From NCBI GenBank assembly GCA_016872855.1, contig VGYV01000002.1, positions 1 to 43,534 on the forward strand: a stretch of 43,534 bases of DNA. Direction: 5' to 3'. This DNA is from Planctomycetota bacterium. GTDB taxonomy: Bacteria > Planctomycetota > PUPC01 > DSUN01. The notes beneath the pieces were generated by a model that saw only the letters and a list, made by a program, of their open reading frames with translations, was not told the origin of the DNA and did not search any database. Made by a program: the position numbers and the translations under genes. How positions within the stretch are numbered: position 1 is the first letter of the stretch; each line of letters starts with the position of its first letter. Positions 3,764 to 43,534 of this stretch are shown in pieces.

Positions 3764-3777
3764 GCGTCACGCGTCTC
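3698..3777. repeat. Long imperfect inverted repeat built from GTGACGC heptamers (ACGCGT cores) at the junction of two MoCo genes
   Basis: Left arm TGACGCGTGACCCGTGACGCGTGA (3698-3722). The right arm (3751-3777) is GATCACGCGTCACGCGTCACGCGTCTC, whose reverse complement matches the left arm over about 23 nt with one mismatch. The loop is about 30 nt. The right arm covers the stop codon (3767-3769) of the MOSC-MoaB gene. Confidence 0.7.
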
Positions 3778-5727: not shown

Positions 5728-5728
5728 C

Positions 5729-23212: not shown

Positions 23213-23589
23213 CCTGTCAACGCCAGTGAGTGTACGCACGGTCGTCTCTCCTCAAAGCTGTCCAGCAACCACTTGGCCAGCCGGGCATGGGGAGCTCGAC
23301 GCAAACCTGAACGCCATGGCGGATCGTCCGCGCTTGCACGCGCCGCTCAAGCAGGTTCGCCAGGCTTCATGCCCCGCCAGCCCTGCCCAGCCCAGCCCAC
23401 AATAGTACGCATGACCTTTGAGCCTACTCGCGCCTCGCGCGGCTCTGTCGGCCGGTCTGCCCATTCCCTTCGCAGATTCTACCACCCGTTGGCTCAGAAG
23501 CGCAAGTCTTCTCCGGCTCAGACCATAGCAGATAGCGGGAGGGCACGGCGGGGGCGAATTGCGCAGGGGGTCGGTGCGAGGACCGGCGG

Positions 23590-26154: not shown

Positions 26155-26981
26155 CGCGGATTCCTGTGGCGGAACACGTGCCGAGCTGCACGGACTGGTT
26201 CCCCGTCCAGGAGGAGCGCCGGGTTCAGGACGCAGACGCGGCGGGCCGCGGGTTCCCCAAGTCGGCGGGCGATGGCCTCGGTTGCCTGGGTCATGCAGGG
26301 CCGCCGGGCCGCCGCGTCGTGGGCATCGCTGGCAACGAGCGCAGCCGCACCCGTGGCGAGCCAATGCCACGCCACCTGCTCCGCCAGGGGGCCGAAGTGG
26401 CCCAGCAGACTGGCGGCAGTCACCTGGAGAAGCGCGCCCCCCTCCAGCCACGGACTCATGGCCTCAGGCCTGCGGGCGAGGAAGACGTTCCGCTCCGGAT
26501 GCGAGAGGACCGGCGTGACGCCACGGGCCACGATCTCCGCCAGGAGGGGCTGGATGTTGATGAACGTGTCGTGGGGCAGCTCCAGGAGCAGGTATCTCCC
26601 GGAATCGGCCAGGGTCACGAGGCGCCCGGCGTCGAGCAGGGCGGGAATCCGCTCGTCCACGCGGACGTCGGCGCCGGCCTCGACCACGAGGGGGATTCCG
26701 CGCGCGCTGAGAGCGGCACTCAGCTCCACGACGGCGTGGCGGATGTCGTCGGCCGTCAAAGTGCTGTCGAAACGGCCCAGTTGGTGGGGTGTGGCAATCA
26801 CCGTGGTCACGCCATCGGCGACGAGCGCGTTGCACAGCTCGATGGCCTCGCCGACTGTCGCCGGGCCGTCGTCCACGCCGGGCAGGCAGTGGCAGTGCAT
26901 GTCCACGCACTCCGTGGCCGCGAAGCGTTCGAGGCGGCTGCGCTGCGCTGGCGAATGGGCATCGAGCAAGAGGCGTGTCAT
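26151..26981 (-). CDS. PHP-domain (CpsB/YwqE-type) protein-tyrosine phosphatase
   Basis: VDMHCHCLPGVDDGP...VIATPH...LSHPERN...VASDAHD are the metal-binding motifs of CpsB-type phosphatases. ATGA overlaps with both the upstream (26978-26981) and downstream (26151-26154) genes. Confidence 0.85.
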   Translation of the reverse strand: MTRLLLDAHSPAQRSRLERFAATECVDMHCHCLPGVDDGPATVGEAIELCNALVADGVTTVIATPHQLGRFDSTLTADDIRHAVVELSAALSARGIPLVVEAGADVRVDERIPALLDAGRLVTLADSGRYLLLELPHDTFINIQPLLAEIVARGVTPVLSHPERNVFLARRPEAMSPWLEGGALLQVTAASLLGHFGPLAEQVAWHWLATGAAALVASDAHDAAARRPCMTQATEAIARRLGEPAARRVCVLNPALLLDGEPVRAARHVFRHRNPR

Positions 26982-29312: not shown

Positions 29313-30791
29313 TCACCGCGTGGTGCTCGGGACCAACGGGACCGTCGCATAAGCGCCGGCGCCGAAGTGCAGGACCCTGGCCCAGAACTTGTTCCAGCGC
29401 GTTCGGAAATTGGGTTCCAGGCAGATGACGTCGCCGGGCTTGATGACCACATCCAGCGCCTCAATCATGGTCATGCCTCCGATCGGGAACTGGGCCACGA
29501 CCGGCCGCCCGTCGCGGTCCTGGCGGTAGATGGTGGCATGCCGCGGGCCTGCCTGTAGATCAGTGCCTCCGGACATCGCGAGCGCCTGTTGCAGGGTGTA
29601 CCTCGCCGTGGGCGGGTACGAGTGCACGCCCGGGCTCATCACCAGCCCGGTCACTGTGAAGAGCGGGTCCTCGTAGTGCTCCACCTCGACGCTGTCGCCA
29701 TCCTGAAGGGCGACGTTGACAAGGGGGATGTTGCGGTCTCTGACGGGGACTTCGAGGGGCTTCGCATCGTGGGCCTGCCCCGCGCGGCGAATGCGGATGA
29801 TCTTGGCCCCGCCGGCGCCTGCGCCCGACGTCCTCGCCGAGCCCCCAATGCCGCCCGCCTTGGCCAGCAGCACCGCCAGCTCCATCTCGTTGCTGCGAAG
29901 CTCGTACCTCCCCGGCGAGCCCACCGCCCCGGCCGCGTAGACCGTCGCCGTGCAGTATTCGGCCACCTTCACCATGACCGTCGGGGGGGAGCCGACGTGC
30001 TTCGGGTGATAGGCGGCGGCCACGGTCTCCTCGATCTCGGATACGCCCTTGCCGGCCACAGGGACGTCGCCGACGACGGGCAAGCGGACCACTCCCGCGT
30101 CCGTGACCCGGCACAGGAGGGTCGTCCCTGCGGGCGACTCCCGGCCGCCTGGCGCGGCGCCGCCGACGACGGCCGACAGGAGCGAGGTCCCACGCTCCGT
30201 GACCCGGGCAATCACGGAGGGACGGTTCTTGACGAACTTGGGGAAGTAGGCTGCGACGACGGCCGCCTCGGTCTCGGGAAGCGTTTTGCCCGCGACCGGC
30301 AGCTCGCCGACGGCAGGCAGCCAGATACTCCCCGCCGCGCTCACGCGGCAAGCATAGGAGGGAATCCTGCCGCCATCCTCGCCCAGGCCGTGCATGACCG
30401 TGGGCATTGCCAGGTCAATCACGTCCCCCGAGCGGACGCGGTACATGTCCAGCCGCTTCTCGGGAGGGGCGGGCCCATCGTGGCTGACGGCGTCCTTTTG
30501 CTCCGGGCGCAGTTGTGCTACCCACTCGGCCCCGTCCTGGCGCGCTTCTATCTTGACTTCCAACACGTCGCGCGCGACGACGCGGTAAGGCCAAGCGAAC
30601 GGCTTGGCCACGGGCAGTTCACCGAGAGAGATTGTGGGAACCGCGGGACCGGCTGTGTTGAAGCGCGCCAGTTGCTCGCCAGTCGTAGCGCGCGGCAGCT
30701 CACACCCGCCAAGACAAAGGGGGAGGAAAGGCAGCAACCCGGCCAGCGCGGGCGCCCGAAAGCGTCTCAGCCCTATTGTGGCGAGCTTCAC
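29313..30791 (-). CDS. Outer-membrane polysaccharide export protein (Wza-like: Poly_export + SLBB repeats), lipoprotein
   Basis: Lipobox ...LLPFLPLCLGGC. YRVRSGDVIDL (polysaccharide-export motif). Repeated soluble-ligand-binding beta-grasp-like segments (...VRLPVVGDVPVAGK...; ...LQDGDSVEVE...; ...IKPGDVICLEP...). GTG start at 30791. Confidence 0.75.
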   Translation of the reverse strand: MKLATIGLRRFRAPALAGLLPFLPLCLGGCELPRATTGEQLARFNTAGPAVPTISLGELPVAKPFAWPYRVVARDVLEVKIEARQDGAEWVAQLRPEQKDAVSHDGPAPPEKRLDMYRVRSGDVIDLAMPTVMHGLGEDGGRIPSYACRVSAAGSIWLPAVGELPVAGKTLPETEAAVVAAYFPKFVKNRPSVIARVTERGTSLLSAVVGGAAPGGRESPAGTTLLCRVTDAGVVRLPVVGDVPVAGKGVSEIEETVAAAYHPKHVGSPPTVMVKVAEYCTATVYAAGAVGSPGRYELRSNEMELAVLLAKAGGIGGSARTSGAGAGGAKIIRIRRAGQAHDAKPLEVPVRDRNIPLVNVALQDGDSVEVEHYEDPLFTVTGLVMSPGVHSYPPTARYTLQQALAMSGGTDLQAGPRHATIYRQDRDGRPVVAQFPIGGMTMIEALDVVIKPGDVICLEPNFRTRWNKFWARVLHFGAGAYATVPLVPSTTR

Positions 30792-30809
30792 TTAGCAGCC
30801 CCGGCAATC

Positions 30810-31163
30810 TCACGGCCACGGCGGCAAGATTGGCGTGCGCTTCGCCGGCCGCCGAATGATGATCAGGAGCGCGGGCCTAACGACGCTACGCGTCCTCGCC
30901 TCGGCACCCAGGGTGGGTAGGCCGCCCGGTGAGCCGGCTGCTGCTGTGGGATTCACGCCGCTCAGAGGAGCAGAGGCCAGTGCCAGGTCCGTCCCGAGGC
31001 TGAAGGGGTCAAAGGCGAGCGCCTCGGCATCGACTCCCTTCGATGGCAATCGGGCCGCTGCAGGCGACGCTTGCCGCAGGAGCCCCAGAACCAAGGGGAT
31101 GGCGACTAGCGCCGCGCACGCACCGCGTCCCCCCCATCGACGCTTACGGACCGCATCTCGCAT
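30810..31163 (-). CDS. Hypothetical small secreted protein
   Basis: ATG 31163. Signal-like RKRRWGGRGACAALVAIPLVLGLL. Third-position G/C is coding-like. It fills the gap between two supported genes. No recognisable domain. Confidence 0.35.
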   Translation of the reverse strand: MRDAVRKRRWGGRGACAALVAIPLVLGLLRQASPAAARLPSKGVDAEALAFDPFSLGTDLALASAPLSGVNPTAAAGSPGGLPTLGAEARTRSVVRPALLIIIRRPAKRTPILPPWP

Positions 31164-31181
31164 CGGATGTCCCCCGCTCCG

Positions 31182-32420
31182 CTATGTGATGCCCGCGGAG
31201 CATCGCTTTGCCGGATGCGCCACTCGGCGGCGTCGTCTCCTCACGATCAAGGCGGCAAGCCCACCTCCCAGCAGGACCATGGACCCCGGCTCTGGCAATG
31301 CAAGGCGCAGGACCTCGCCCGTGAAGACGTAGTTCGTGGGGAGGTGGGTGTCAATCCAGAGATGGTCCTTCATCAAGCCGCCCCAGTGGACGAAGCCCGC
31401 GCTCAGCGCGGAACCTCCGGCGAGAATTTCGAGATCGTACATGCCGTACCCGTTCGCGGTGGCCGCAATCAGCCCAAGGGTACCAAATACGGTGTCCTCG
31501 GTGTACCCAAGCGCGGGTCCGCCGAAAGAGTCGCCTTGATGGTCAAAGCGCCAATAGAAGGAGCCGGTTCCGGGGTAGTCCTGGTGCCCGCCGAGGATAC
31601 CAGGCAGGTCGCTCAACGTCACCGGCTCGTTATCGCCGTAGTCCCACCAGACCTCGTAGCCCGGCACGGGCGCGGCAGAGGGCAGGACGTACGTGTTGTC
31701 CAGTCCCCCCGGCGTCGAAGCCAGCGCCCACACGGCGGCCCCAAGAGCCATGACGGGGTAGCCGGGGTGATCGCCCGGCGTCGAGACGTCGTGCACCATG
31801 CCCAGCGTCTCCACAAGCCCGGCCCGCCAGTCCGACAGATCCGCCGCATTCACATACGCCGCAGCGACGACATGGTGGGCGAGGCTGTTCACTACTATCG
31901 AGTTCCCACCGTCGCCGTAGTTGTACACGGTGAACCATCGGAGCTTATCCACGTACCCGGGCGTCCCGGCAGGATTCCCGGGATAGCCAGGCGGGTAGGC
32001 GCCCCCGGGATTGGGGGGGACAGCGGCGAGGCCACTGATGGCTTGATAGAGGTTGGTGAGTTCGGTTCGCCAGATGTTGGCCGACGGGGTAGCATTGATC
32101 TGGCTGAGGCGCGCAAAAGCGTACGCCTCTTCCCCAACCAGGTGGTGGGTGTTCGGAGCGATCTCGAACGCGTTGTTCCGAATCCAATCCCCCCCTTTCT
32201 CCGCGCTCGTCTTGTATGCCGGCTTCCCGGTCATCTCATAGACGCGCACGAGACCCGGGATGATGAACCCCGTCTCCCACTCCTGACCGGGCGGAGGCCA
32301 ACTGCCATTGGGGTTCTGCGCTGCCACGAGCAGGTCAGCCTGCGGCGCCCACACGTTCGCGGCAGCGACTGCGGCCAGCTCAGCAACGATGACCAACGCT
32401 AGAGAGCGATGGTGTCGCAT
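31182..32420 (-). CDS. PEP-CTERM sorting-domain secreted protein (N-terminal region possibly alpha/alpha-toroid-like)
   Basis: GAGAGGA-N5-ATG 32420. Signal MRHHRSLALVIVAELAAVAAANVWA. The C-terminus LALPEPGSMVLLGGGLAALIVRRRRRR fits the pattern PEP motif + TM + Arg cluster. Confidence 0.8.
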   Translation of the reverse strand: MRHHRSLALVIVAELAAVAAANVWAPQADLLVAAQNPNGSWPPPGQEWETGFIIPGLVRVYEMTGKPAYKTSAEKGGDWIRNNAFEIAPNTHHLVGEEAYAFARLSQINATPSANIWRTELTNLYQAISGLAAVPPNPGGAYPPGYPGNPAGTPGYVDKLRWFTVYNYGDGGNSIVVNSLAHHVVAAAYVNAADLSDWRAGLVETLGMVHDVSTPGDHPGYPVMALGAAVWALASTPGGLDNTYVLPSAAPVPGYEVWWDYGDNEPVTLSDLPGILGGHQDYPGTGSFYWRFDHQGDSFGGPALGYTEDTVFGTLGLIAATANGYGMYDLEILAGGSALSAGFVHWGGLMKDHLWIDTHLPTNYVFTGEVLRLALPEPGSMVLLGGGLAALIVRRRRRRVAHPAKRCSAGIT

Positions 32421-32626
32421 TCCCGTCCTCTCTTGGTGTTCACCTGCACGGCTGCTGGTCTCGGTTGCCAGCGAGGTCGGTGGAGCCGGACACCATATCG
32501 TCTCGACCAGTGAGGCCTAGGTCGAGAACGCAACTCACGCCACCGTCCGCGCAGGCAGGACCCACGTGGCACAGTGGCCCAGACCATCCCCGGGTTCCCG
32601 GACATCGAACCCATCCATCGCCTTGT

Positions 32627-32655
32627 AATCTACCAGAGGCACCGCCATCTGTCAA
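32627..32655 (-). promoter_or_regulatory. Sigma70-like promoter for the 31182..32420 PEP-CTERM gene
   Basis: Minus strand: TTGACA (32655-32650), a 17-nt spacer, then TAGATT (32632-32627), preceded by an AT-rich stretch (TCTTTGATTTC). It implies a leader of roughly 200 nt before ATG 32420. Confidence 0.5.
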
Positions 32656-32910
32656 GCAAGAAATCAAAGATTCCGCAGAGCGGCCATGGGCCTCGCCGCC
32701 TCCGGTGTCCCAGGGCATCCGTGACACATATATCCCCTTTCGCACCAACCTCTTAGGGAGCAAAGGAGCGGGCGGCCGCAAAGCCCGCGGGCAGCGATGC
32801 AACAGGCTGGCCCAGGCGAGCCTGCGCGCCCCTGCATAGGGCATGGGCACATATGGCAGCGCGCGCCCGAGCCGACGCTCCGGCTGCACGGGCTGTTTCC
32901 ACGCAGGGAG

Positions 32911-33810
32911 CTACGTCGCTTGCCTCTCGAGTAGCTCGGCCACGTCGGGGCCTGGCCTCCAATGAAGGTCGAATGCAGGCACGTGCGCGACCAGGTCGTC
33001 CAGGAAGCGAAGGACCATCGTCATCGGCTCGGGATCGTACCATGGGACAGATGCGACGCGCAGAAGCCGCTCGGCGGCTCCTCGCGGGCCCAGCGGCACG
33101 ATCTCGTTGGCGGCCGCCCGCCGGATGAAGTAGATGGCGCGAAGCGGGGCGCTCTCGTTCAGTGCTGCCCCCTGATCCCCGGGCCAGGGCGTGCCGTAGG
33201 CGAGGAACCTGCCGCCGACTTTCCGGAGCGCCACACGGTCGTCGCTGAGGAGCCTGAGGCCCTCACGCCCCGCCAGGTGAGCTGCCAGGGTGCTCTTGCC
33301 GGCGCCCGACTTGCCGGGGAAGATGAGCCCCTTGCCACCCATGTTCACTCCCGCCGCGTGGACGAGCGCCCCTTCGTGCCGCGCAAGGAGGAAGATCAGC
33401 AGAATCTGGTCGAGGGGGTAGGTGACGGGGGTCGCGATGGCGAGGCCGTCCCCTGTCTTGCTGGCCATCTGGTCGCTACAGTAGATCGTCACGTGGGTCA
33501 GGTCGCAAGGGAACCGGGCCGTCCAGAGCTCGGGCTCGGAAGGGCGGCGGGGATGGAGCGCGAGGACATAGCTCCCGCCGTCACGCGACAGACGCCACGA
33601 GTCTCCCGTATCGAAGACGACCCTCGGGCTCACAGGAGGAGGCGCGGCTCCCAGTTCCACGCGCACCGGCACATCGAGTGCCTCTGGGGAGCTGCCTGGG
33701 GGGATGCTGAAGGGGCCGTAGGAGGCGTCGAGGCCCCGGAGTTCGAGCGGATGCCGAGAGGTCAGGGAGAGAGTGAAGCCGGCAATGCTCAGGCTGGCGC
33801 GCAGCGCCAT
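32911..33810 (-). CDS. HPr-kinase/phosphorylase-related kinase (HprK C-terminal-domain-like P-loop protein)
   Basis: ...HEGALVHAAGVNMGGKGLIFPGKSGAGKSTLAAHLAGREGLRLLSDDRVAL...GTPWPGD shows the P-loop and downstream SDD typical of HprK-like kinases. Start set at ATG 33810. The ORF segment 33811-33954 has only about half G/C at third positions, whereas another frame there looks coding (see 33839..34009). Confidence 0.75.
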   Translation of the reverse strand: MALRASLSIAGFTLSLTSRHPLELRGLDASYGPFSIPPGSSPEALDVPVRVELGAAPPPVSPRVVFDTGDSWRLSRDGGSYVLALHPRRPSEPELWTARFPCDLTHVTIYCSDQMASKTGDGLAIATPVTYPLDQILLIFLLARHEGALVHAAGVNMGGKGLIFPGKSGAGKSTLAAHLAGREGLRLLSDDRVALRKVGGRFLAYGTPWPGDQGAALNESAPLRAIYFIRRAAANEIVPLGPRGAAERLLRVASVPWYDPEPMTMVLRFLDDLVAHVPAFDLHWRPGPDVAELLERQAT

Positions 33811-33838
33811 GTGGCTCGGTACCCGAAGAGAGAAGCGG

Positions 33839-34009
33839 CTACGACCCTGGCAGACTGCAGTTGTTGATCCAGCACGGAGAAGCGCCGGAGGCGGTCTTGC
33901 TCGCCGACTTGCAGCCAGTGGCCAACACCTCGGCTGCGGCCAGATCAATGGCACGAAGCCTGGGCTTCTCGTAGGGCAGCTTCTGCTACCGCGGGGACTG
34001 GGAGTTCAT
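33839..34009 (-). CDS. Candidate RiPP precursor peptide, interrupted by an in-frame TAG at codon 8 (33986-33988). The uninterrupted part is 33842..33985.
   Basis: Minus strand: GGAGAGGAGA-cagcg-ATG(34009) AAC TCC CAG TCC CCG CGG TAG CAG AAG CTG CCC TAC GAG AAG CCC AGG CTT..., giving MNSQSPR*QKLPYEKPRLRAIDLAAAEVLATGCKSASKTASGASPCWINNCSLPGS*. About four fifths of third positions after the TAG are G/C, which is gene-like. YEKPRL matches the YxxPxL leader motif bound by PqqD-type RRE domains. The core has 3 Cys, is Ser-rich, and ends in Ser. Too short to appear in the ORF track. Confidence 0.4.
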
Positions 34010-35246
34010 CGCTGTCTCCTCTCCGGTATTCCTCGGCGGCCTCCCCCGCGATCACCTTGTAGCGGAGATGTCCAAGGGCGCACAGGTACTCGGAGCAGAC
34101 ATCCTCCGCGCCGTTCTCCAGAGCGAAGTACGCAGGACAGTATCCACAAAACACCCGCTTGGCGCAAGCGCCGCAGGCGGATTCTGCTCTGGCCCTCTTC
34201 TCGAGGACCTGCGGGATCACCGTGTCCCATCCTGTGCGGAAGCTGTGTTCCAGGAGGCTGCACGAGGGCTCGGAGGTCATGAGGCAGGGGCTCAGACGGC
34301 CGACGGCGTCCACATGGAAGCCGGTGAGGCCTGCGGCGCACTGGTAGAGCGCCTGTGTGGGAGCGATGGCGCCCTGCCTGCGGACGAAGTCGCGCCACTT
34401 CTGAACCGTCCCCTCGTCCGCCAACTCCCTCGCCACGGCCTCGCGGGCCGGCACGCGCAGGCGCAGGGGCGTCCTGTCGCCGTCGAAGCGCGGGAAGATG
34501 GCCGCGTCGAAGCGGAACCTCACGCCCATCGCGGCCGCCAGTTGCTGCATGGCAGAGAACTCGTGGCGGTTGAGCGTCATCAGCACGGTCTTCAGGCCCA
34601 CGGGAACCCGCGCGTCGAGCAGCCGCCGCAGGCCGGCCAGGCAGGCCGCGAACGAGCCGCGCACGCCCGTGATCCTCTCGTACGTCGCCCCCGTGGCGCC
34701 ATAGAGAGTGACCTCGACTTGCCGCGGCGGCATATCGGCGAAGAGGGCCGCCGTCTCGTCGGTGACGAGCGTGCCGTTCGTGAAGACCATGACCAGCAGC
34801 CCGTTCTGCCTGGCGTGGCGGTAGATAACCGCAAAGTCCGGCCGCAGCAACGGCTCCCCGCCCGTCATGAGGAGTTCCAGGCAGCCCGCCTCCGTCGCCT
34901 GGTCGAGGATGGCGAGCCACTGAGCCGTGGTGAGCTCCCACGGGGACATTCTGCTTTCCCGCGAAGCGGCCTTCGGCGCCCCCTTTGGGGGCGGAAAGCA
35001 GAATGTCCCCCTGGGCCTGCTTTCGGATTTCCGCCCCGGAGGGGCGGACTCCGGAGTCCGCGTCTCCGACGCGGGCGGAAAGCAGAATGTCCCCCTGGGC
35101 CTCAGATAGCAGTGGACACAGGTCAGGTTGCACCGCTGGGTCAGCTCGACGCTGCCGGACAGGGGGACCCTCTGCTGAGTCGCCTTTTGGTTGAACTCGG
35201 TGAGGAACTCGACGTTGTCGGGCGGTTTGGTCAGCGAGCAGTCCAC
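33945..35246 (-). CDS. Radical SAM / SPASM-domain peptide-modifying enzyme carrying an in-frame repeat-element insertion
   Basis: GTG 35246 lies 2 nt after the PqqD stop. CNLTCVHC (CX3CX2C, 35109-35132). The core resumes at ELTTAQWLAILDQATEAGCLELLMTGGEPLLRPDF...VMVFTNGTL. SPASM motif ...CAAG...CGACAKRVFCGYCPA...C. About 55 extra residues (LRPRGTFCFPPASETRTPESAPPGRKSESRPRGTFCFPPPKGAPKAASRESRMSPW) are encoded by the 34942-35102 repeat. Confidence 0.8.
   Translation of the reverse strand: MDCSLTKPPDNVEFLTEFNQKATQQRVPLSGSVELTQRCNLTCVHCYLRPRGTFCFPPASETRTPESAPPGRKSESRPRGTFCFPPPKGAPKAASRESRMSPWELTTAQWLAILDQATEAGCLELLMTGGEPLLRPDFAVIYRHARQNGLLVMVFTNGTLVTDETAALFADMPPRQVEVTLYGATGATYERITGVRGSFAACLAGLRRLLDARVPVGLKTVLMTLNRHEFSAMQQLAAAMGVRFRFDAAIFPRFDGDRTPLRLRVPAREAVARELADEGTVQKWRDFVRRQGAIAPTQALYQCAAGLTGFHVDAVGRLSPCLMTSEPSCSLLEHSFRTGWDTVIPQVLEKRARAESACGACAKRVFCGYCPAYFALENGAEDVCSEYLCALGHLRYKVIAGEAAEEYRRGDSDELPVPAVAEAALREAQASCH
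34942..35102. repeat. Composite palindromic repeat element inside the rSAM CDS
   Basis: An 18-bp perfect inverted repeat: GGGGACATTCTGCTTTCC (34942-34959) / GGAAAGCAGAATGTCCCC (34993-35010). A 30-nt direct repeat GGGCGGAAAGCAGAATGTCCCCCTGGGCCT at 34989-35018 and 35073-35102 (84-nt period). Between them, a 45-nt module TCCGCCCCGGAGGGGCGGACTCCGGAGTCCGCGTCTCCGACGCGG (35030-35074) is identical to 41001-41045. Confidence 0.85.
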
Positions 35247-35248
35247 GG

Positions 35249-35548
35249 CTATGAAGCTTCCTGGACGAGTTCCGCCGCAAGGAGTTCGGCGATGAACTCC
35301 TGGATGTCGGCCTCCGCTCGGTCCTGTTGCACGGCAAAGGCATCGAGGACGGCATCTCGAATGTCGGCAAGCGTCCGCGTCCCGTCCAACTTCTCCCACA
35401 CGAACGCGGCGACGGGGTTGAGGCAGAAGAGCTTCTGCATGTCGGCGACCCTCCCGCGAATGGGCACGAGAAGGGTCTCGCCCACAATCTGGCGGGTCAC
35501 CACGTCGCCGCGCTTCTTGAGCACCAGGCCCGAGCTTGCATCTGCCAT
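35249..35548 (-). CDS. PqqD-family protein (RiPP recognition element-like)
   Basis: ATG 35548, 16 nt after the upstream stop. MADASSGLVLKKRGDVVTRQIVGETLLVPIRG...KLFCLNPVAAFVWEKLDGTRTLADIRDAVLDAFAVQQDRAEADIQEFIAELLAAELV is the typical PqqD/coenzyme-PQQ-synthesis-D-like pattern (...LN.sa..iW..ldG..t..ei...l...y.v......Dv..fl..L...gli). Confidence 0.8.
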   Translation of the reverse strand: MADASSGLVLKKRGDVVTRQIVGETLLVPIRGRVADMQKLFCLNPVAAFVWEKLDGTRTLADIRDAVLDAFAVQQDRAEADIQEFIAELLAAELVQEAS

Positions 35549-35564
35549 TCGGGCGCCCCCCGGG

Positions 35565-38500
35565 CTATTGCGGCCGCCGCAGGCGCAAGGCGGGGTCACC
35601 CAGGAGCTGGTAGAGGCGCGCGCTCGCTGGGCCAGCCGCAGATGCCTTCAGCACCGCATCGCCCAGAATGGCTTCCTGGCGGCCGAAGACCTGGCGGAAG
35701 AACTCGATGGCGAGGGTCTTGGACTCGTTGTTCTCCGCGAGAGCCGAAGGTCCCCAGAAGGCGATGCCGCCGCCGCCGCTCTTTAGGACGAACGCCTTGC
35801 CAAGGCACTGCACCCCCGGCAGATCGAAGCGCGCGGCCAGGCATGTGAACGCCGTGACCACGGGCATGCGATCCCCGTTGGCCAGCGAGGCGACGTCGGC
35901 TGTCGTCAGGAGGTTGCTGCCGCCGAACTGGGTCGCCGAGCCGTGGCCGATATAGTTCAGGAGGAACGCCCCGTCGTTGAGGTCGGCCAGCAGCATGGCA
36001 CGGGCGATCGCGATGGGGAACTGGGAGAGGTATACCCTATCCACGATGTAGGGCGCGGGCACGAGGCCTGACAGGTCGTCGCTGTCCTGCGGGAACGAGC
36101 CGGCATTGGGGTCGGCCTTGTCCGCCGCCAGGACCACGTGTCCTGTCCACTCTCCGCTGGCGGCCTCATAGGCGGTGATCTTGCTGACGAGGGCCGACAT
36201 CTCGGCCGCGCTCGCGGCTGGGAGCCGTCCGATGGCGAGCCCCGCGGGGGCGAGCTGGGTGTCGGACGCGAAGAGCCCGTAGTCGGTGGCCATCATCAAC
36301 GGCGGCAACAGATTGTCGCCGTAGCCCTGGTAGTTCTTGTAGTCGTATGTCCCGTTCCCGGCCAGCACAGCGTAGCGGGGCGCCGTCTTCCATGTGCCCT
36401 TCGCCAGGGCCAGGAAGGCCTGGATCGCGTGCGGGTTCGCGATCCCGTGGTTGAACTCGTCGTAGATGTCCACGAGGTCTACGGCCATCGTCTTGAAGCG
36501 CTTGGCCTGACGGTACGAGGCGAGGGCCTTCGCGCCATCCATCAGCACGTTCGGCGCGATCACCACGTAGTCCGCCCCGTTGCCGCGCCAGGTGAGGCGC
36601 GAAGGCACATCGGCCACCACGGAGACGGGGGCCTTCACCGCGTCGGGCGTGAGCGCGTAGTAGACGCCCCCAGGCGCCGCGGGCACGCTGGCCAGGAACG
36701 CCCCGTTGATCTCCTCGACCGTGGCCCCGTCGAGCAGTTCGGGGAGCCAGGGGTCGGACACGTCGAAGACGGAGATCGCGCGCTGGCTGAAGCGCCCGAT
36801 CGTCACCACGTCCCGGTCCCCTGTCTTGCACAGCAGGCTGCCGTTGACGGCCAGGTAGAAGCGCCGGTAGGTGAGGTCTAGCGAATCGAGGTAGAAGACG
36901 CTGTAGGGGGCTCCCGTGTCCCCGACGGCCTTGATGGTCACCGTGTTGGCCGCGGTGAGGAGTTGCTGGTCAAAGGGGAGCGTGAGGGTGCAGGCCTGCG
37001 TGCCGTCCCAGCGCCCCTCGCCGATGACCGTGCCGTTGAGGGCCACCACGACGTGGTGGTCGGGGTTGGCCTGGGTGGCCGTGGCGCCCTTGAGACGGAC
37101 GACGAGGGTGGCCGCCCCCGTCGGCGCCGGGTCCGGGGCGGAGACAGCGAATGCCTTGGTCGCAAGACTCGTGCTCTTGGGGGTCACATACACGTAGTCC
37201 CACAGCCAGAAGTCGGCCTCGGGGTCCGAGAAGACCGCGGTGAGGGCGAATCGGTTCACCTCAGCGTGTACCGTGTCGGCGAAAGTCCCGGGGGTGGGGC
37301 CGGCCTGCGCGCCGGAACTTGTCCCCTTGCTCATCAGCAGGCCCCTGGCGGCCTGGAGCCAATAGACGTTCTCGTCGGTGTAGATGCTCTTCATGGGCTG
37401 GCCGTAGAAGAGGATGCCGGCGTCGGCCGGCGCGGGAAGGTAGGGCACGACCTTTCCCTGGCAGGAGAGCAGGAGCCGCCCATTGCGGATGGCGACGCCG
37501 ATGGCGCTCTTCGGGATGCCCAGCAGGGCCGCGATCTCGGGGGCCTCCACGCGGTAGAGCCCGGCCTCCTTCACGGCGATCTTGATGGCCGGCTGTGCGC
37601 CCGAGGGCGCGGGCACCGACTGGGGCGGTGGGGTCGGAACCACGATCAGCTTCGCGGACTTCCCTGCCGCCGCCTTCTCCTTCGCCGCCGCCTGACCAGG
37701 AAGACCCGGCGCTTCGCCGCCCTGCACGCTTCGCGCGCGGCGGCTGAAGCCCTCAGGACCCAGGTCGGTCGCCTTCGCGTCGCGCTGTTCCTGAACTGTG
37801 ACTCGGTATGGCCCGCAGACGAGCTCGGTCCCCCGAGATTCCACCTCGATGAGCTGGTAGGTGTAGGTCTTGCCCGCCTTGGCCGAGGGGTCTGCGAGGC
37901 GGTAGGTGCCGCCCTGCGGGTCAGTGAGGACGCCGGGCACGAGGTGTTCGCTGACCTTCTGGAACTTCCCGCTGGCCTCGTTGAGGCGCAGGAGGTAAAA
38001 GCCCACGGTGCCGTGTTCCGAGGCCGTCTCCCACTCGACCACGGTCCTGCCGCCCTCGCACGTGGCGCGGAAGGCGGAGACGGTCGCCGCCGTGGGGCTG
38101 GCGCCGAACGTTGCCGTGTCGGTGAGCGTCCCGGGAGGATTGCCATCCACGTAGGTCACGGTCAAGATGTCACGGTTGTTCGCCTCGAGGATGCGGTCCG
38201 TGGTGGAGTAGCTGCCATCGTAGAGCTGCGCCTGGAGCAGTGGCCTGGTCTGGAAGACGATGTCCGTCCGCGGGGTCGTGAGCGTCTGGGTCAGCGTGAT
38301 CTGCGTCTGGCTGTTGACGATCTGGACCGTGTACTCGCCCATGTCGGGCCCGCTGAGGATCACGAACTTGTCGCCGGGCAGCACGCCATCGGTCTCGAAC
38401 TTGGCCGAGGCCGACGTCACGACGTTGGAGGATGCCGTCGTCAGATCGTTGTTCGTATTCATGAACACGTGCGAGTACGCGTCGGTCTCGCGCAGGGTCA

Positions 38501-40806
38501 CGTCCTGATAGTCGCCGGTCGGGCTGGAGACTCTGACGGTCCGGGTGTCGCGGACCGCGTCGAATGTGATCCCCGTGCCCGATGCCGCGAGGTTCTGAGT
38601 CAAGGTGATGGAGGTCTCGCTGTTGACGGTCAACACCGTGTACATCCCCGCGTTCGTGCCGCTCAGGATTCTGAACTGGTCGCCTGGCGCCACACCGCTG
38701 GTGATGAACGTGGACGACACCGAGGTCACCACCGCCAAGCCGGCGGTCGTCACCAGATCGGTCCTGGTCGTCCCGTAGTTGCTGTCCGTCACCTTGACGA
38801 AGATATAGTCGCCGTCGCTGTAGGTCGTGACGTCGTAGAGCCCCGTGCCGTTGACGAACGCCACGGTGCCGGCGTTGGGGACGAGGATGTTGGCGACGTC
38901 CGTGACAGTGCCGCCGGGGTAGCCGCTGAGGGGGGGTAGGTGTAGGTGGCCGTGGCGATTCCGCCCACGTATTCCTCGAAGGTGCCATTGTTCGGCGTGG
39001 GCGAGCTGGTGGCAAAGGACGGAAGGGGACTCGTGTTGCGGAACTCGCCCGTGTCAGGGTCGGTTTCCGTCAGGGCGATCGTCGTCGTGCCGTTGCCTTC
39101 CGAGTCGCCACGCGTCCCCGTCACCACAACGTAGATGGTCTGCACGGTATCGGGGTTGGTGTTCGCGGCGGCGTGATTCACCGTCACGTAGATGGGATCG
39201 CTCGCCGGCGTGCCCTCGGTCAGAGTGTAGCTCGTGGCGTCCGTCCCGTCGGCGCGCGTGAACCGGATGATGGGAGTCCCCGGCCCCAGGATCTGCGCCC
39301 AGTCGTCGTAGTTCACGCTGTTCTCGACATAGCGGGTCATGATCCAGTCGCCCGCGTTCACCCTGAATGTCCCGTCGTCAATCCCGCCGCCCAACGAGGA
39401 GGATGTGGGGAGGGGGTCCGCCGCATAGGTCTGGAACGTGATTGTGTCGCCAGTCTGCGGCTTGTTGGGGTTCTTGTTCTCGTAGATGGTGAACGACACG
39501 GCGCCGTTGTTTGAGGTGAACTGCGTGCCGGCGGTCGCGGTGCCCTGGGCGAGGGAGACGGTGCCGGCTACATCCCAGTTCGTGCCGTTGTAGGTCGCGG
39601 TCCAGGTCTCCGCCACCGCCGTGCGATACGTGTAGACCGTCGGGATCCAGCCCCGAGGCGTGGCGGGGTTGGAGACGGGATCGGTGGCGGCGCCCTGGTT
39701 GGAGAAGATGCCGCTGTCCTTGGCCGTCTCGCGGAGGGTGAGGGTCTCCACGTCGCCCGTCAGCGGATCGGTCACTGTGACGGTGATGGTCTCGAAGACA
39801 TTGGAGTCGGTGTTGGCATTCCGCGCCGTGACGAGGACGTACACATAGCCGCCCACATAGTAGTACTGGACGTCCGGCGCAAGAGTCTGGTCGGTGAACC
39901 TGATGGCCGGCGTGGCCAGGGTGATGACGTCGCCGAAGGGGGTATAGCCCATCCAGTCCTTCTGGAGAGGATCGGTGTTGGACGCGCTGGTCGAGTACGC
40001 CAGGCGGATCGGGGTGTCGGGGTAGACGAGTTGGTTCCCGAAGTTGTCCTTGAGTGCCGTCAAGGGAATCTGGAAGTCCACAAACCACTGCTCCGTGCGG
40101 TCGGCGATGTTCACCGCCAGGGTGTGGGAGAGGTTGCCTGCGTCCTCGATGCTCATGGTCGTCCAGCGGTTGATCTCACTCCCCTCGGGGTCCAGCATCT
40201 CCTGCGTGTTGTCGTTGTTGTACATCAGCTTCAGGGCGTTCACGTTCGTGCCGTCCAGGTCGAGCCAGTACTCCTTGTACCCGTCGCCATCGCAGTCAAT
40301 AAGGATATTCCAGTATTCCAGTGACGCGAGACCCAGTAGTCGCCGTTTCCGCCCTGGTCCTTGGGGTTGCCCTGCACGCGCAGGCGGAAGAAGACGTAGT
40401 CGTCGTTCATTGTCGCGGGGTCGTTGGGGTTCCACGCCGTTCCGCCGTTGTAGTAGCCGTACCAGACGGATGGAGCCGGCCCCGGGGCCATCGGGTTCGG
40501 CGAGGCCGAGGCGATGTCAATGCAGTCGGGCTCGACGGCCGCCGGCCCGTGGGTCGGGTCGGCGGAACTCTCGTAGTCCATGACCTTCCTGCCGTCTATC
40601 GTGTAGTAGGTGACATAGGGGTTGTTGAAGAACGTGCTCCAGGGCAGTCGCGTGTCCTTCACGCCGCCATAGAAGAGGGCGGCTGGGAGCAATACGGTGG
40701 CGAGGATGAGCGCGAAGGCGCCGAGCCGGAGGAGCGACCTGCGCCGGGCGCACCCCCTCCGCGCCCCAGTGCGATGCGACGCATGGTGCAAGCGCAACGA
40801 CCCCAT
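35565..40806 (-). pseudogene. Second giant secreted protein with a C-terminal C25 (gingipain-type) peptidase domain, split into three ORFs by two frame disruptions
   Basis: ORFs 40240..40875, 38789..40435 and 35565..38864 overlap and read as one protein once (i) one copy of the 8-bp tandem duplication ATTCCAGT/ATTCCAGT (40307-40322) is removed and (ii) one nucleotide is added to the 7-nt G run (38930-38936). N-terminal signal anchor (ATG 40806: MGSLRL...RRSLLRLGAFALILATVLLPAALF). C-terminal ...VDIYDEFNHGIANPHAIQAFL...AVLAGNGTYDYKNY...LNYIGHGS...PVVTAFTCLAARFD is paralogous to 17705..23212. Confidence 0.7.
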
Positions 40807-40884
40807 GTCAAAGTCCTTTCGTGGAGTTGCCGGCAGGGCTCTCTCTCGCCCTCTCCCCGCGAGGCTGGCACGCACCTATGACCC

Positions 40885-40913
40885 CGTATAAGGGGGTCAA
40901 GGGGCCTTGTCAA
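40885..40913 (-). promoter_or_regulatory. Sigma70-like promoter upstream of the disrupted C25 gene
   Basis: Minus strand: GAAGAAAAAGC-TTGACA (40913-40908), a 17-nt spacer, then TATACG (40890-40885). ATG 40806 lies about 70 nt downstream of the predicted transcription start. Confidence 0.45.
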
Positions 40914-40966
40914 GCTTTTTCTTCCGGGATTGCCTGACCCGAGGTGGGGGAATCCCCTACGGCAAC

Positions 40967-41111
40967 GGGGGGCCCACAGCCCCCCCGTGGGAGATTGGAT
41001 TCCGCCCCGGAGGGGCGGACTCCGGAGTCCGCGTCTCCGACGCGGAATGATTTCCGCCCCGGAGGGGCGGACTCCGGGGGGCCCACAGCCCCCACCCCCG
41101 TGGGAGATTGG
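40967..41111. repeat. Composite intergenic repeat cluster (modules X-B-B'-X)
   Basis: Module X, GGGGGGCCCACAGCCCCC(N)CCGTGGGAGATTGG, at 40967-40998 and 41076-41111. Module B, (GA)TTCCGCCCCGGAGGGGCGGACTCCGG..., at about 40999-41045 (45 nt identical to 35030-35074), with a partial second copy at 41049-41077. Each module is internally palindromic (TCCGCCCCGGAGGGGCGGA, CGGACTCCGGAGTCCG, CGCGTCTCCGACGCG). Confidence 0.8.
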
Positions 41112-41358
41112 GAAGGGCCGTCGCCCCACGCGAGGAAACGGGGGTTTGGCGGGGCAAGCCCCTCCGGGGCGGCCCCCAAACGGCGGACGGCTGGCGAGGT
41201 GGGGGGAAATGGCGTGGAGCAGGACGAGGGGTGCGTGGCGTTCAGCCCAACGAGGGCGGCCGCGGAGGCGGCACGGGCACCGGCAGCGCCGGAAGAGAAC
41301 CCGCGAGAGAGCCAGCGGCCATCTGAAGCTTCTCGTCCTGCTCCTTGCCTTGAGGTCT

Positions 41359-41386
41359 CCGAGGCCGCGCGGCGGCGCGGCCTCGG
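41359..41386 (-). terminator. GC-rich hairpin downstream of the C1-peptidase gene
   Basis: CCGAGGCCGCGC (41359-41370) / GCGCGGCCTCGG (41375-41386), a perfect 12-bp stem with a 4-nt loop. No clear U-tract. Confidence 0.35.
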
Positions 41387-41406
41387 GCGACTGCCGATGT
41401 CTGCTC

Positions 41407-41439
41407 GGGCAGAAAAGGAGAATGTCCCCTTTTCTGCCC
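41407..41439. repeat. Short member of the GGGGACATTC palindromic-repeat family, positioned like a terminator hairpin
   Basis: GGGCAGAAAAGG-AGAATGTCC-CCTTTTCTGCCC, a 12-bp perfect stem 10 nt downstream of the minus-strand stop at 41449. Its sequence matches the right end of the 24651-24737 element (AGAAGGAGAATGTCCCCTTTTCTGCCC). Confidence 0.7.
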
Positions 41440-41448
41440 CAGGCGACG

Positions 41449-43534
41449 CTATCTTGCCCTCACGGTAGCCGTGACCGGGCCGCAGTAGGCGGAGGTCAGG
41501 TCAGGGCTGAGGCGGAAGGCCTGGACGCGGTAGGCGTAGGTGCCGGCGGCCAGGCCGGAGTCGGTGTAGGTCGTGGCGTTCGGCCCCACGGTGGCGATGC
41601 GCGCGAAGACGAAGGACTTCTTCACCTTGACCCCGCGCTCGACGTAGAAGCCGCTCTCGGTGGTGGAGTTGTCCGTCCAGGTCAGGGTGACGTTCTGCTT
41701 GGAGACCGTGGCAGTCAGGCCGGTCGGGGCGGCCGGGGGCTCGGGGGCTACGACGGTGATGGTGAGTGTGGTGCTGGCGGTCGCCCCCTGGTTGTCGGTG
41801 ACGGTGAGCGTGACGGTGAAGGTGCCGGTCGTGGTGTAGATGTGGCTCACCGTCGGACCGGCATCGGCACGCACTGTCCCGTCGCCGAAGTCCCAGTCGT
41901 AGCGGGTGATGAAGCCGTCGCTGTCGTAGGACGACGAGCCGTCGAAGTCGACGATCAAGGGCTCGAAGCCTTGCTCGACGTCGGCCACGGCGACCGCGAC
42001 GGGCGGCTTGTTGCCAGTGCCGCCGAAGTAGTCGATCCAGACGTAGGCCAGTGCCTCGTCGGCAGCCTTAGGCGTGTTGGCGGCGGTGCCAACGAGGAGG
42101 TCGCCGGTCTCCGTCACCTGGTACAGGTTGAAGGAGCGGATGGCAGCGGCGTCGCCCGATGCGTTGTCCACCATGCCTGCGAACCAGCGCTTGGTGGTGA
42201 TGGCCGTGGTGGGCGCGATGTCGCTGAAGTCGAGCCAGAAGCTGCCGTCGCACGCGGTGGTGGTGCCATCGAAGGCGAAGGAGCCGCCGCCGTAGTAGAG
42301 CACGTCGTCGCTCGGGAACCAGGCATTCGCGGGCTGGGTGGCCGTGGTGTCGCCGATTCCCAGGAAGACGAGCAACTGGTCCCGCTTGAGGTGGTTCAGC
42401 GTGACCTTGGCGAGCATCGTGGGCGCGTACGAGGGCCGGGCCGTGACCCAGCAGGCCTCGCGATACCACCAGCCCTCCTGGCGCCCCGCGGCCGGGGCGC
42501 CGGGGACCGCCGAGACGGACTTCAACGCGTCGTAGGCAAACCAGGTGAAGCCGCCCTCCTGCCAGCCTGTGCCCCAGGAGTTGGCGATGCGGAGGGCACC
42601 CTTCTCGCCGGCGTCCACCGTGCCGTTGCCATTGATGTCCACCCAGATGTCATCGGAGTAGCCGACTACCGTCATGACATGCCCGCCGATGCTACCGTTG
42701 ACATAGGTGGCGCAGTTCTTGCCGACGAAGGCGTCGTCGGCCGTGGTCGAGGGGTCATCGCTGGCGGGCTTGAACTGCCAGGAACCGATGTAGGTGGCGA
42801 AGTTCAGGACGTAGCCGTTGAGAAGGAGTTGCTTGAGCTGCGCGAGGCCGGCCTCCGTGTCCACATTCAGGACGCGGCCAGCCTGGTCGGCGCGCACGTT
42901 GATGGCCGTGCGCCAGACGGCCGGGTTGAGGCACCAGGCGCGGTAGTTGCTGTCGTAGGGGAACTCGGCCCAGGTGGCGACGCCGTGCTTCTGGGCGATT
43001 GCATAGGCGTCGTAATGCCACGACCCGCCGTCCACCCCGCCGTTGACCATGTTATACGTCCACTTCGGCGAGAAGCGGAACCCGTCGCCCCCGGTCTTGG
43101 CGTCCCAGCCGCGGGCCATGGCGGTCATGTGGGTCAGGGTGTAGTAAACGGCGGAGAACTGTGCACAGGAGCCGAGCGAGCCCTGGCTGCGGATGGGGGG
43201 AAAGTAAGGCAGTGTGCTGTTGTCCACGTAGCTCGCCCCCGCCTCCGCGGGCGCGCCCTCCCCGGTTGGCTCTCCACCCACCTCGCTGCCGAGGGCCGCC
43301 GGGGCCACCTGCGTCAGCTCTCTCTGGCCCCTCTTCTTCCTCTCCGCGTTCACGCGGTCGAGGCCCAGCTTGTTCAGCCGCACGCGGCCCGCGGCAACCA
43401 TGTGCTTGTCGGCCCACTCGCGCTGCTTCGCCGTGGGCCGCAGGGCGCCGGTCGCGTGAGGATCGTTGTCCTTCCGTTGCCCACCCAGCGCCTGTGCGGA
43501 CAGGAACGCGAAGCCAATCGCCAGCCAATTCCAC
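41449..43534 (-). CDS. Secreted papain-like (C1 family) cysteine peptidase with C-terminal PKD and fibronectin-type-III domains; the 5' end probably runs off the window
   Basis: Catalytic contexts IRSQGSLGSCAQFS (Gln/Cys), GGHVMTVVGY (His), IANSWG (Asn). PKD hallmark YDWDFGDGT. FN3-like PAAPTGLTATVSKQNVTLTWTDNS...GTYAYRVQAF. The frame stays open upstream of ATG 43401 to the window edge and encodes a signal-like WNWLAIGFAFLSAQALGG, so the true start is probably beyond 43534. Confidence 0.8.
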   Translation of the reverse strand, partial: WNWLAIGFAFLSAQALGGQRKDNDPHATGALRPTAKQREWADKHMVAAGRVRLNKLGLDRVNAERKKRGQRELTQVAPAALGSEVGGEPTGEGAPAEAGASYVDNSTLPYFPPIRSQGSLGSCAQFSAVYYTLTHMTAMARGWDAKTGGDGFRFSPKWTYNMVNGGVDGGSWHYDAYAIAQKHGVATWAEFPYDSNYRAWCLNPAVWRTAINVRADQAGRVLNVDTEAGLAQLKQLLLNGYVLNFATYIGSWQFKPASDDPSTTADDAFVGKNCATYVNGSIGGHVMTVVGYSDDIWVDINGNGTVDAGEKGALRIANSWGTGWQEGGFTWFAYDALKSVSAVPGAPAAGRQEGWWYREACWVTARPSYAPTMLAKVTLNHLKRDQLLVFLGIGDTTATQPANAWFPSDDVLYYGGGSFAFDGTTTACDGSFWLDFSDIAPTTAITTKRWFAGMVDNASGDAAAIRSFNLYQVTETGDLLVGTAANTPKAADEALAYVWIDYFGGTGNKPPVAVAVADVEQGFEPLIVDFDGSSSYDSDGFITRYDWDFGDGTVRADAGPTVSHIYTTTGTFTVTLTVTDNQGATASTTLTITVVAPEPPAAPTGLTATVSKQNVTLTWTDNSTTESGFYVERGVKVKKSFVFARIATVGPNATTYTDSGLAAGTYAYRVQAFRLSPDLTSAYCGPVTATVRAR

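Follow-up and report, generated by a model that had tools for sequence, protein, structure and literature searches.

A radical S-adenosylmethionine (SAM)/SPASM peptide-maturase gene of a Planctomycetota bacterium (assembly GCA_016872855.1, contig VGYV01000002.1) carries a translated stretch of palindromic repeat DNA immediately after its CX3CX2C cluster motif. The gene encodes 433 aa and lies on the minus strand at positions 33945–35246 of the 43,534-nt stretch analysed here (hereafter the window); its start agrees with the independently called product P0001. A sequence-only reading of the window had described an in-frame palindromic insert two codons after this motif, in a gene that still formed one open reading frame (ORF), and this is borne out: the repeat codons run from R49 to W103 of the 433-aa ORF. 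The insert is real, but what had been taken for one composite element is a mosaic of two distinct repeat families of the repetitive extragenic palindromic (REP) type, referred to below as X and H. We consider it probable that this mosaic, which resembles a bacterial interspersed mosaic element (BIME), was copied into the surface linker between the CX3CX2C loop and helix alpha-1 of the maturase. Loci fetched for comparison are given L numbers and proteins P numbers.

The insert in the radical SAM gene

The repeat-derived coding segment (34938–35102, minus strand; 165 nt, 55 aa, RPRGTFCFPPASETRTPESAPPGRKSESRPRGTFCFPPPKGAPKAASRESRMSPW) begins with R49 (35100–35102), two codons past the last cysteine of the motif (C39, C43 and C46, followed by Y47 and L48), and ends with W103 (34938–34940). 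The conserved ELTTAQWLAILD...GGEPLL resumes downstream of it, and GTFCFPPASETR is an example of the peptide that the repeats encode. All features previously assigned to 34942–35102 are present, with the boundary refined to 34938–35102. Codon periodicity collapses over 34935–35100: the position-specific GC content is 0.90–0.95 at third positions, about 0.45 at second positions and 0.70 at the remaining ones in the flanks, and about 0.75/0.75/0.55 in the insert. Together with the recurrence of every module elsewhere (X at 24651–24737 and 41407–41439, H at 41000–41071), this speaks for a non-coding origin of the insert. The encoded peptide brings two further cysteines into the protein and has a high content of Pro, Arg, Ser and Gly; counted by hand, 12 of its 55 residues are Pro and 8 are Arg.

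Read on the plus strand, the segment opens with an X-family arm (34937–34959) that contains the core GGGGACATTC and is the inverted partner of two further arms, at 34993–35010 and 35077–35094. The 18-bp perfect hairpin noticed earlier is formed by the first two, whose 18-nt arms GGGGACATTCTGCTTTCC (34942–34959) and GGAAAGCAGAATGTCCCC (34993–35010) are perfectly complementary and can be extended to 23 nt with one mismatch (34937–34959 and 34993–35015). The spacer of this X doublet (34960–34992, plus strand) has small hairpins of its own, GCCCCC-TTT-GGGGGC and one with a TTCG loop, and is related to that of another X copy in the window, at 24651–24737 (24687–24727 and 34942–34982 are 85% complementary). 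A 30-nt direct repeat with an 84-nt period had also been noted, and its copies are exact: the first (34989–35018, plus strand) contains the arm at 34993–35010, and the second (35073–35102, plus strand) contains the arm at 35077–35094 and abuts codon L48; over 46 nt the copies are 85% identical. This nested repeat, read earlier as a second insertion or duplication, is a second X copy with an H-family dimer in between, and duplication of the arm is common in other genomes.

The H dimer (35029–35074, plus strand) is arranged head to head. It comprises H1 (TCCGCCCCGGAGGGGCGGA, 35030–35048), the abutting tags CTCC and GGAG (35049–35056) and H2 (TCCGCGTCTCCGACGCGG, 35057–35074); written out as a 46-nt module, H1 TCCGCCCCGGAGGGGCGGA is followed by CTCCGGAG and H2 TCCGCGTCTCCGACGCGGA. 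The identity of this module with intergenic DNA, first seen over the 45 nt of 41001–41045, reaches 46 of 46 positions (35029–35074 against 41000–41045). The 18-mer arm of family X occurs six times in the window at up to three mismatches against an expectation of 0.05, a number that none of 100 shuffled sequences attained. Of the six reading frames, three or more stay open through the composite. The 84-nt unit and the 54-nt period of H units are both divisible by three, and the frame would therefore be preserved if the 30-nt repeats slipped against each other.

Alignment with orthologues, proposed earlier as a check, found the insert absent elsewhere. A homology search found 1337 homologues, and among 120 homologues compared there is no homologous 55-aa loop: the segment from Y47 to E104 measures 8–14 aa in 117 of them, 17 in one and 31 in the orthologue P0003, against 56 here. 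P0002, the closest homologue other than copies of the protein, is syntenic, about 75% identical outside the insert and has only the linker GPPSGRASEHW at this position; the linker is short as well in SkfB and PqqE, the solved structures nearest in sequence. Both the length and the sequence of the linker vary over the family and in these two proteins. Given that the homologues already have a linker of 8–14 aa, the net gain is only about 43–44 residues; the earlier figure of about 55 added residues holds for the repeat-encoded length but not for the gain.

Outside the insert, the host protein is a regular radical SAM/SPASM maturase by the presence of CX3CX2C, the GGE SAM-binding motif, all SPASM cysteines and a PqqD partner. 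In both of our alignments (A1 and A2), it has every family-invariant residue (C39, C43, C46, G129-G130(-E131), C303, C321, C358, C361, C367, C370 and C389). Pfam Radical_SAM matches with 70.7 bits. The best NCBIfam matches are SPASM maturases, among them AhbD, NirJ, PqqE, ScmE/F and the mycofactocin maturase, all well under the family cut-offs; the best-matching stretches all start past residue ~146, and the models no longer align over the cluster motif. A Foldseek search with the structural model of the host protein placed SuiB, SkfB, MoaA, PqqE and anSME as the nearest structures. Over 35244–35399, the NCBI-derived product P0121 (484 aa), begun at an upstream GTG, overlaps the preceding PqqD gene; the start of the 433-aa product, right behind the PqqD stop codon, agrees with the homologues.

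An assembly artefact, in which the composite or its 84-nt arm-plus-H part was stitched together from repeats elsewhere, is very improbable. Every module is indeed repeated elsewhere, and the 8,555-nt JGI contig from sample 3300020074 (L001) that is 100% identical to window positions 30788–39342, whole composite included, comes from a sample related to that of the window and probably from a similar pipeline. Nevertheless, the composite is identical in these two contigs, and Logan unitigs from two other read sets (runs SRR7989281 and SRR7979709), although they break inside the element, begin within the X loop and run through the right arm into ELTTAQW. Given the identical contig and the two unitigs across the right junction, gross misassembly is unlikely. 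The exact repeats, at only 30 and 46 nt, are also below typical final k-mers, and the frame is kept, which a random mis-join would achieve in one third of cases. Breakage of the unitigs in the repeat explains why the Logan gene calls begin at M100, within the insert.

Families X and H

Family X was sought with the pattern GGGGACATTC-N35-65-GAATGTCCCC in one genome per species. X doublets were found at no fewer than 119 loci, several to a genome and, among the matches listed, three apiece in some genomes. The hosts are Gammaproteobacteria (Steroidobacteraceae, Woeseiaceae and others), Alphaproteobacteria, Planctomycetota, Nitrospirota, Acidobacteriota, Chloroflexota and Bacillota. The consensus of 308 arms is RRAAAW-core-YNCWTTTYC, in which the flanks are not imposed by the search pattern, and the identity between arms is 0.77 within an element against 0.47 between elements. 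Each arm forms a small hairpin whose loop region holds the conserved core; an X unit such as GAAAAGGGGACATTCTCCTTTTC folds in this way as a short imperfect palindrome, and arm pairs form long hairpins of 55–85 nt. In all, 121 doublets of this length consist of inverted units around a short spacer, as in REP doublets forming hairpins (REPINs); those of the window are 34937–35015 and 24651–24737. An X arm is directly duplicated beside the doublet, in the arrangement of the radical SAM gene, in L012, L016, L038, L097, L109 and L118.

Most X copies lie outside in-frame coding sequence (104 of 108 evaluable copies by a strict test of GC content at third codon positions, GC3), although the four in-frame copies are a lower bound, as the test undercounts near gene ends and misses the radical SAM case. 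In the window, two of the three X loci are intragenic. The third is a singleton hairpin (41407–41439, plus strand; DNA fold z = -4.5) about 10 nt beyond the stop codon of a PKD/peptidase gene (41449–43401, minus strand).

The earlier view of a mobile repeat is strengthened by the genes that X units flank. L033 encodes a 225-aa Y1_Tnp ORF (PF01797, 54 bits against a threshold of 23) whose best NCBIfam match is the REP-associated tyrosine transposase (RAYT; 68 bits against a cut-off of 80), and this gene lies between two X units on its upstream side and two inverted ones on its downstream side. Its homologues number about 2,800 at E <= 1e-10 and belong to several phyla. Among four further RAYT loci, the gene is preceded by GGGGACATTC and closely followed by GAATGTCCCC in three (L246, L249 and L251), and L248 has the variant core GGGGACWGTCCCC. 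X units therefore flank the RAYT gene in four of the five loci examined, and, given their inverted arrangement around it in L033, L246, L249 and L251, family X is a REP/REPIN family with a cognate RAYT. In L248, the RAYT flanks (2770–2900 and 3690–3710) carry a variant repeat with the palindromic core GGGGACTGTCCCC/GGGGACAGTCCCC in place of GGGGACATTC.

Family X does not appear to be catalogued. In Rfam, no family covered the elements, either in the whole window at gathering thresholds or in the insert region at E <= 10, where only sub-threshold microRNA-precursor hairpins were returned; literature full-text searches for the core strings GGGGACATTC and GAATGTCCCC gave only unrelated primers, and a consensus X doublet had no BLAST match among the PLSDB plasmids. 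A viral contig scan gave only four matches, which rules out X as a phage feature. The gene between the two X clusters of L109 was considered as a transposase, and its translated ORF, no profile search having been made, reads as prpF and does not resemble one; by gene names read from translations, the layout is acnD, X, prpF, X, rsmG. An intergenic X copy in the Planctomycetota metagenome-assembled genome (MAG) PPR_0503 (L034:558–648) shares about 93% identity with 24651–24737, judged by eye and with the spacer counted; it is intergenic and not orthologous to that insertion. The radical SAM protein of PPR_0503 (P0008) is only about 56% identical to the one studied here, and the X element is far better conserved than the genomes.

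The H hairpin has 19 nt and consists of a GNAG tag, an 8-bp stem and a 3-nt TCC loop. The tag is GGAG in most copies, L149 having two units with GTAG and GCAG, and represents a variant of the GTAG consensus. Judged from their sequences, H1 and H2 are best described as variants of a single tagged REP whose orientation alternates. The intergenic copy of the module belongs to an H1-H2-H1 array (41000–41071, plus strand) in a region, 40876 to 41448, that has no GC3-supported ORF. Direct repeats of about 32–35 nt flank this array (40967–40998 and 41076–41111) and carry another hairpin, GGGGGC-CCACA-GCCCCC; the H dimer of the radical SAM gene is bracketed by X arms in the same manner.

In a metagenome scan for H1, the two variants occurred together, among the matches listed, only in contigs of 66–70% GC. 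L199:1–360, at a contig end and directly upstream of a membrane-protein gene, is a tandem array of at least seven H2-H1 units with a period of 52–54 nt. A CRISPR-like (clustered regularly interspaced short palindromic repeat) reading of H1 copies at this distance was rejected, the 'spacers' being the same H2 hairpin in every unit. The gene after the array shows no transposase features by eye, no profile search having been run. Solo H dimers were found in L137, L143, L149, L167 and L239, of which L143, L167 and L239 have the form GGAG-H2-N5-H1-CTCC. The dimers are head to head in the window and L137 and tail to tail in L143, L167, L239 and L002.

In-frame recurrence, origin of the mosaic and fate of the enzyme

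The radical SAM gene had been singled out as the clearest case in the window of a repeat colonising a coding sequence. The in-frame repeat is confirmed; it is not the only one. A second X doublet lies in frame inside a Wzy_C/TPR membrane-protein gene (doublet 24651–24737, gene 23590–26157, both minus strand), where it encodes ...ERAEKGTFSFSAQQPSAPQGGEKVNVPFPA...; the GC3-supported ORF, matched by Pfam Wzy_C, runs across it, and the DNA fold of the doublet has z = -4.9. The syntenic Wzy-like orthologue in L006 (13803–15551) shares 78% aa identity, is 15 aa shorter and has unrelated sequence at the insertion spot. That sequence is a different 42-nt stretch with its own GC hairpin, GAGGGGC-CCCGA-GCCCCTC.

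Other lineages provide similar cases. X doublets are found in frame in a DUF7133/cytochrome c protein of a Gemmataceae MAG (L020:5828–5899), within the catalytic domain of a GluRS/GlnRS-type protein (L087:5083–5159) and at the same position of two ImuB-like (IMS domain) proteins (L053:492–568 and L093:2788–2860). The internal spacers of the two ImuB-like doublets differ, and their common site points either to a hot spot or to an old insertion that both share. Family H recurs as well: in L137, L149, L167 and the radical SAM gene, an H unit is read in the same frame and orientation as ...SASETRTPESAPPGRK....

Most informative for the maturase is the orthologous radical SAM protein P0003 (MBM4031479.1, from another Planctomycetota MAG; about 66% identity outside the insert), which has H2-AATCC-H1 in the same loop. 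This insert adds 18–19 aa (L002:10140–10235, also in L003–L005) and was recovered from four samples. Its H dimer matches at 17–18 of 19 positions, has lost the tags and has, relative to the gene, the opposite orientation to the dimer studied here, and P0003 keeps all family-invariant residues. Given the opposite orientation, we read it as probably an independent and older strike on the same permissive loop.

In an AlphaFold2 model built with a 120-sequence alignment, pLDDT is 92–99 in the core and 43–55 over residues 48–100, which have no secondary structure. The structure prediction suggested alongside the sequence-only reading thus gives a confident fold apart from the insert, which is modelled as a disordered loop. 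For the coding-strand RNA of the insert, a multibranch fold is predicted whose closing stem has about 23 bp (minimum free energy -117.7 kcal/mol, z = -7.5). Scans for terminator-like and promoter-like sites found none in the insert or in the intergenic repeat region. An intron, an intein or another excised element was also considered and rejected, as there were only sub-threshold Rfam microRNA hairpins and no Pfam intein domain, and the segment is low in complexity and predicted to be disordered.

The insertion event appears recent, since the arms match at 18 of 18 positions and the module at 46 of 46. As for the enzyme, the data lean towards tolerance of the insert, a view favoured by the older insert of P0003 and by the natural variability of the loop. 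The same REP mosaic may instead have killed the enzyme, its 43-aa Pro/Arg-rich loop with two extra cysteines two residues past the motif and its mRNA structure of -118 kcal/mol blocking cluster assembly, SAM binding, reductant docking or translation, leaving a very young pseudogene; we regard this as possible without favouring it. With perfect repeat copies and a recent event, purifying selection would have had no time to show, and with at least three of six frames open, an intact ORF would arise by chance in about one third of cases. The RNA fold with its closing stem and the failure of the NCBIfam models to align across the motif point the same way. Set against this are the decayed H insert of 18 aa in the P0003 loop, with its retained invariant residues and its occurrence in four samples, the variation of this loop in length and sequence over the family, SkfB and PqqE, the intact state of the remaining operon and of every conserved residue, and the other in-frame copies in likely essential or conserved genes (GluRS/GlnRS-type, ImuB-like).

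A further reading holds that the insert has been co-opted, either as an mRNA structure that tunes maturase expression within its operon or as a flexible loop with a function such as partner docking. The very stable fold, the same loop struck in two orthologues and the same H frame in four of five proteins would fit, yet this seems highly unlikely: the sequence is identical to intergenic copies and has no terminator- or promoter-like site, conservation is confined to one strain, 117 of 120 homologues work without the insert, and the frame preference comes from five cases, all six frames of the H unit being open by eye.

For the origin of the insert as a REP mosaic, the following course seems most likely. 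X, a REPIN-like inverted doublet, would be mobilised in trans by a RAYT (HUH/Y1) that acts on single-stranded DNA hairpins, and the X doublet would have been the first to land in the linker. The H head-to-head dimer and the extra X arm, 84 nt together, would have come later. For this second event, the choice lies between insertion and a template switch or duplication, and the exact 30-nt flanking repeat and the ~32-nt repeat around the intergenic H array hint at the latter. What survived would then have passed a filter for a length that is a multiple of three, no in-frame stop, a hydrophilic and disordered peptide and a position in a surface linker. Because the added lengths are multiples of three and there is no stop in the gene frame, the ORF survives and the DNA is translated. 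The insert would be selfish DNA that persists through the tolerance of the loop rather than an adaptation.

Several observations count against this account. DNA alignment with relatives gave no clean relation of empty to filled site, and no target-site duplication was found at either the radical SAM or the Wzy-like insertion site. Non-repeat sequence makes up only about 12 nt of the 165, where the relatives' linker has 33 nt; most of the native linker has therefore been lost or overwritten, which a simple insertion does not explain. The 30-nt repeat around the H dimer and the ~32-nt repeat around the intergenic array have no established mechanism. The 24 window ORFs scanned with Pfam include no RAYT or other transposase, so that mobilisation of X in this organism would follow by analogy with other genomes. 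No RAYT adjoins H units in the fetched loci, the RAYT of L179 being flanked by a different repeat, and the 308 X arms show no GTAG consensus, the positions before the core being A-rich (AAAW). With regard to the enzyme, the insert places two cysteines and a very stable RNA structure beside the cluster motif, the perfect repeat identity leaves little time for selection to have acted on the allele, and an AlphaFold2 model cannot show tolerance.

Alternatively, the mosaic may have been built in place, by template switching during replication or by microhomology-primed gene conversion, with hairpin DNA of other loci copied into the linker and the X arm duplicated. Besides the lack of a target-site duplication and of a clean empty site, this is suggested by the direct repeats around the H dimer (30 nt, exact) and around the intergenic array (~32–35 nt) and by the duplicated arms that are common elsewhere (L012, L016, L038, L097 and L118). 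It is also suggested by the native linker of L006 (4520–4552), which has GCGTCGGAG and CCGCCC in common with window positions 35040–35075, in the same frame as the repeat (PP..ASE). The match may reflect integration microhomology or coincidence; 9 nt may match by chance in DNA of 67% GC. X units that flank RAYT genes speak for a transposase-driven spread of X, and other H dimers lack long flanking repeats, which makes construction in place rather unlikely. The empty L006 linker was also considered as a target structure, and its hairpin is no more stable than shuffles (z = 0.49).

More speculative is the idea that X is an uncatalogued multi-phylum REPIN-RAYT system whose transposase recognises the invariant GGGGACATTC hairpin core, and that, in one Planctomycetota lineage, X and GGAG-tagged REPs prefer hairpin-prone or microhomologous coding linkers instead of being merely filtered by selection. 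We give it a low probability. Were such preferential integration true, two species would have received independent hits on this one radical SAM loop, and new disordered protein segments would arise steadily from the repeats.

Genomic context and relation to known repeats

The host gene belongs to a peptide-modification cassette beside an exopolysaccharide locus. A PqqD-family peptide chaperone gene (35249–35548, minus strand), whose 99-aa product is called in L001, lies directly upstream in the same operon; this gene and a peptidase C25 gene precede the host gene, and a ScmC/HprK-like gene comes after it. The exopolysaccharide locus contains Wzz/tyrosine-kinase, Poly_export, CpsB and Wzy-like genes. 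The peptidase C25 (PorU-like) genes at 17705–23239 and 35565–38864 are paralogues, with stretches of about 73–75% nucleotide identity that lie a fixed distance of about 17.8 kb apart. Elsewhere in the window, an Acido-Lenti-1 RNA (RF01687) matches near the start (59–104, plus strand; 50.7 bits against a threshold of 37, the Rfam gathering level). An inverted repeat of CGTGAC/GTCACG heptamer-like units lies at the junction of a ThiF-family and a MOSC/MoCF gene (3697–3784; 33-nt arms, 82% complementary). In a 1470-aa protein (5573–9985), a hydrazine-synthase-alpha middle domain (HZS_alpha) is joined to an FGE-sulfatase domain. The four 102-nt tandem repeat copies at 13485–14071 are ordinary, being the TPR repeats of a transglutaminase-like/TPR protein.

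Among known systems, REP/REPIN-RAYT systems (Bertels & Rainey 2011, PMC3116915; Di Nocera 2013, PMC3733652) share with X the hairpin units, the inverted doublets and the inverted units on either side of a single Y1/HUH transposase gene; the position of the evaluable X copies, mostly outside in-frame coding sequence, would also fit the many copies of such systems, which lie mostly between genes and just past stop codons. In classical REPs the conserved part is a 5' GTAG tag; in X it is a 10-nt core, GGGGACATTC, that sits in the loop and the loop-proximal stem. The X core occurs in several phyla, whereas REPIN populations are generally portrayed as lineage-specific. A 2010 study by Nunvar reportedly also concerns REP/REPIN-RAYT systems.

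Translated REPs within ORFs, as singletons, dimers and clusters, have been described in Opitutus terrae, Thauera and Rickettsia conorii, among others, where dimers contribute 20–30 aa and clusters 43–82 aa, and their hosts include genes for error-prone or DNA-repair polymerases and tRNA synthetases (PMC3733652). The in-ORF repeats found here are translated like those intragenic GTAG/CGTC-tagged REPs, and their ImuB-like and GluRS-type hosts match; they differ in repeat family and host lineage and in the combination of two unrelated families in one radical SAM loop. The H head-to-head junction resembles GTAG-tagged REP dimers (PMC3733652) and also the BIMEs of Escherichia coli. With the latter, the repeats share a mosaic of two REP types and the formation of tandem arrays, as in L199. 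E. coli BIMEs, associated with the names of Gilson and Bachellier, are extragenic mosaic clusters of two REP types in alternating orientation with short conserved linkers. They differ from the present repeats in that the sequences are unrelated and that the cluster in the radical SAM gene is translated.

Rickettsia palindromic elements (RPEs) measure about 150 bp and occur in frame in unrelated genes; a summary that cites Ogata 2000 and 2002 presents them as the first in-frame palindromic repeats described in genes and as compatible with predicted 3D structure and function (PMC10969869). In behaviour only, the repeats studied here are like them, as in-frame palindromic selfish DNA with a recurrent element-encoded peptide. 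They are set apart by description, with elements of 19–90 nt that are GC-rich (in a genome of 67% GC) and occur in free-living bacteria, X being RAYT-linked. To our knowledge, RPEs are AT-rich, confined to obligate intracellular Rickettsia and have no identified transposase. A last comparison concerns MITEs, or miniature inverted-repeat transposable elements, derived from DDE transposases, which are likewise small and non-autonomous, have terminal inverted repeats and can form in-frame fusions. Unlike MITEs, the repeats described here have no target-site duplication and no relation to insertion sequence ends that we found, and the associated enzyme is of the Y1/HUH type.

In-frame intragenic REPs are thus already documented (Rickettsia RPEs, Opitutus, Thauera), and the present case is clean but ordinary among them. 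Three points appear to be unreported, literature searches having found nothing on them: two families in one loop by the Fe-S motif, repeated hits on the radical SAM loop, and a multi-phylum RAYT-linked family with the GGGGACATTC core. For annotation, the case is useful in that family HMMs (hidden Markov models) fail over the cluster motif and the NCBI record has a longer start, and the permissive loop of SPASM maturases could serve engineering. For the study of REPINs, the interest lies in an X family tied to a RAYT clade, in a BIME-like H array family and in recurrent peptides read in the same frame. The general picture is refined by these findings and not overturned. They present REP-type selfish DNA that is translated in an enzyme, two residues from its catalytic metal site, and extend the RPE phenomenon to a free-living, GC-rich and probably planctomycete lineage.

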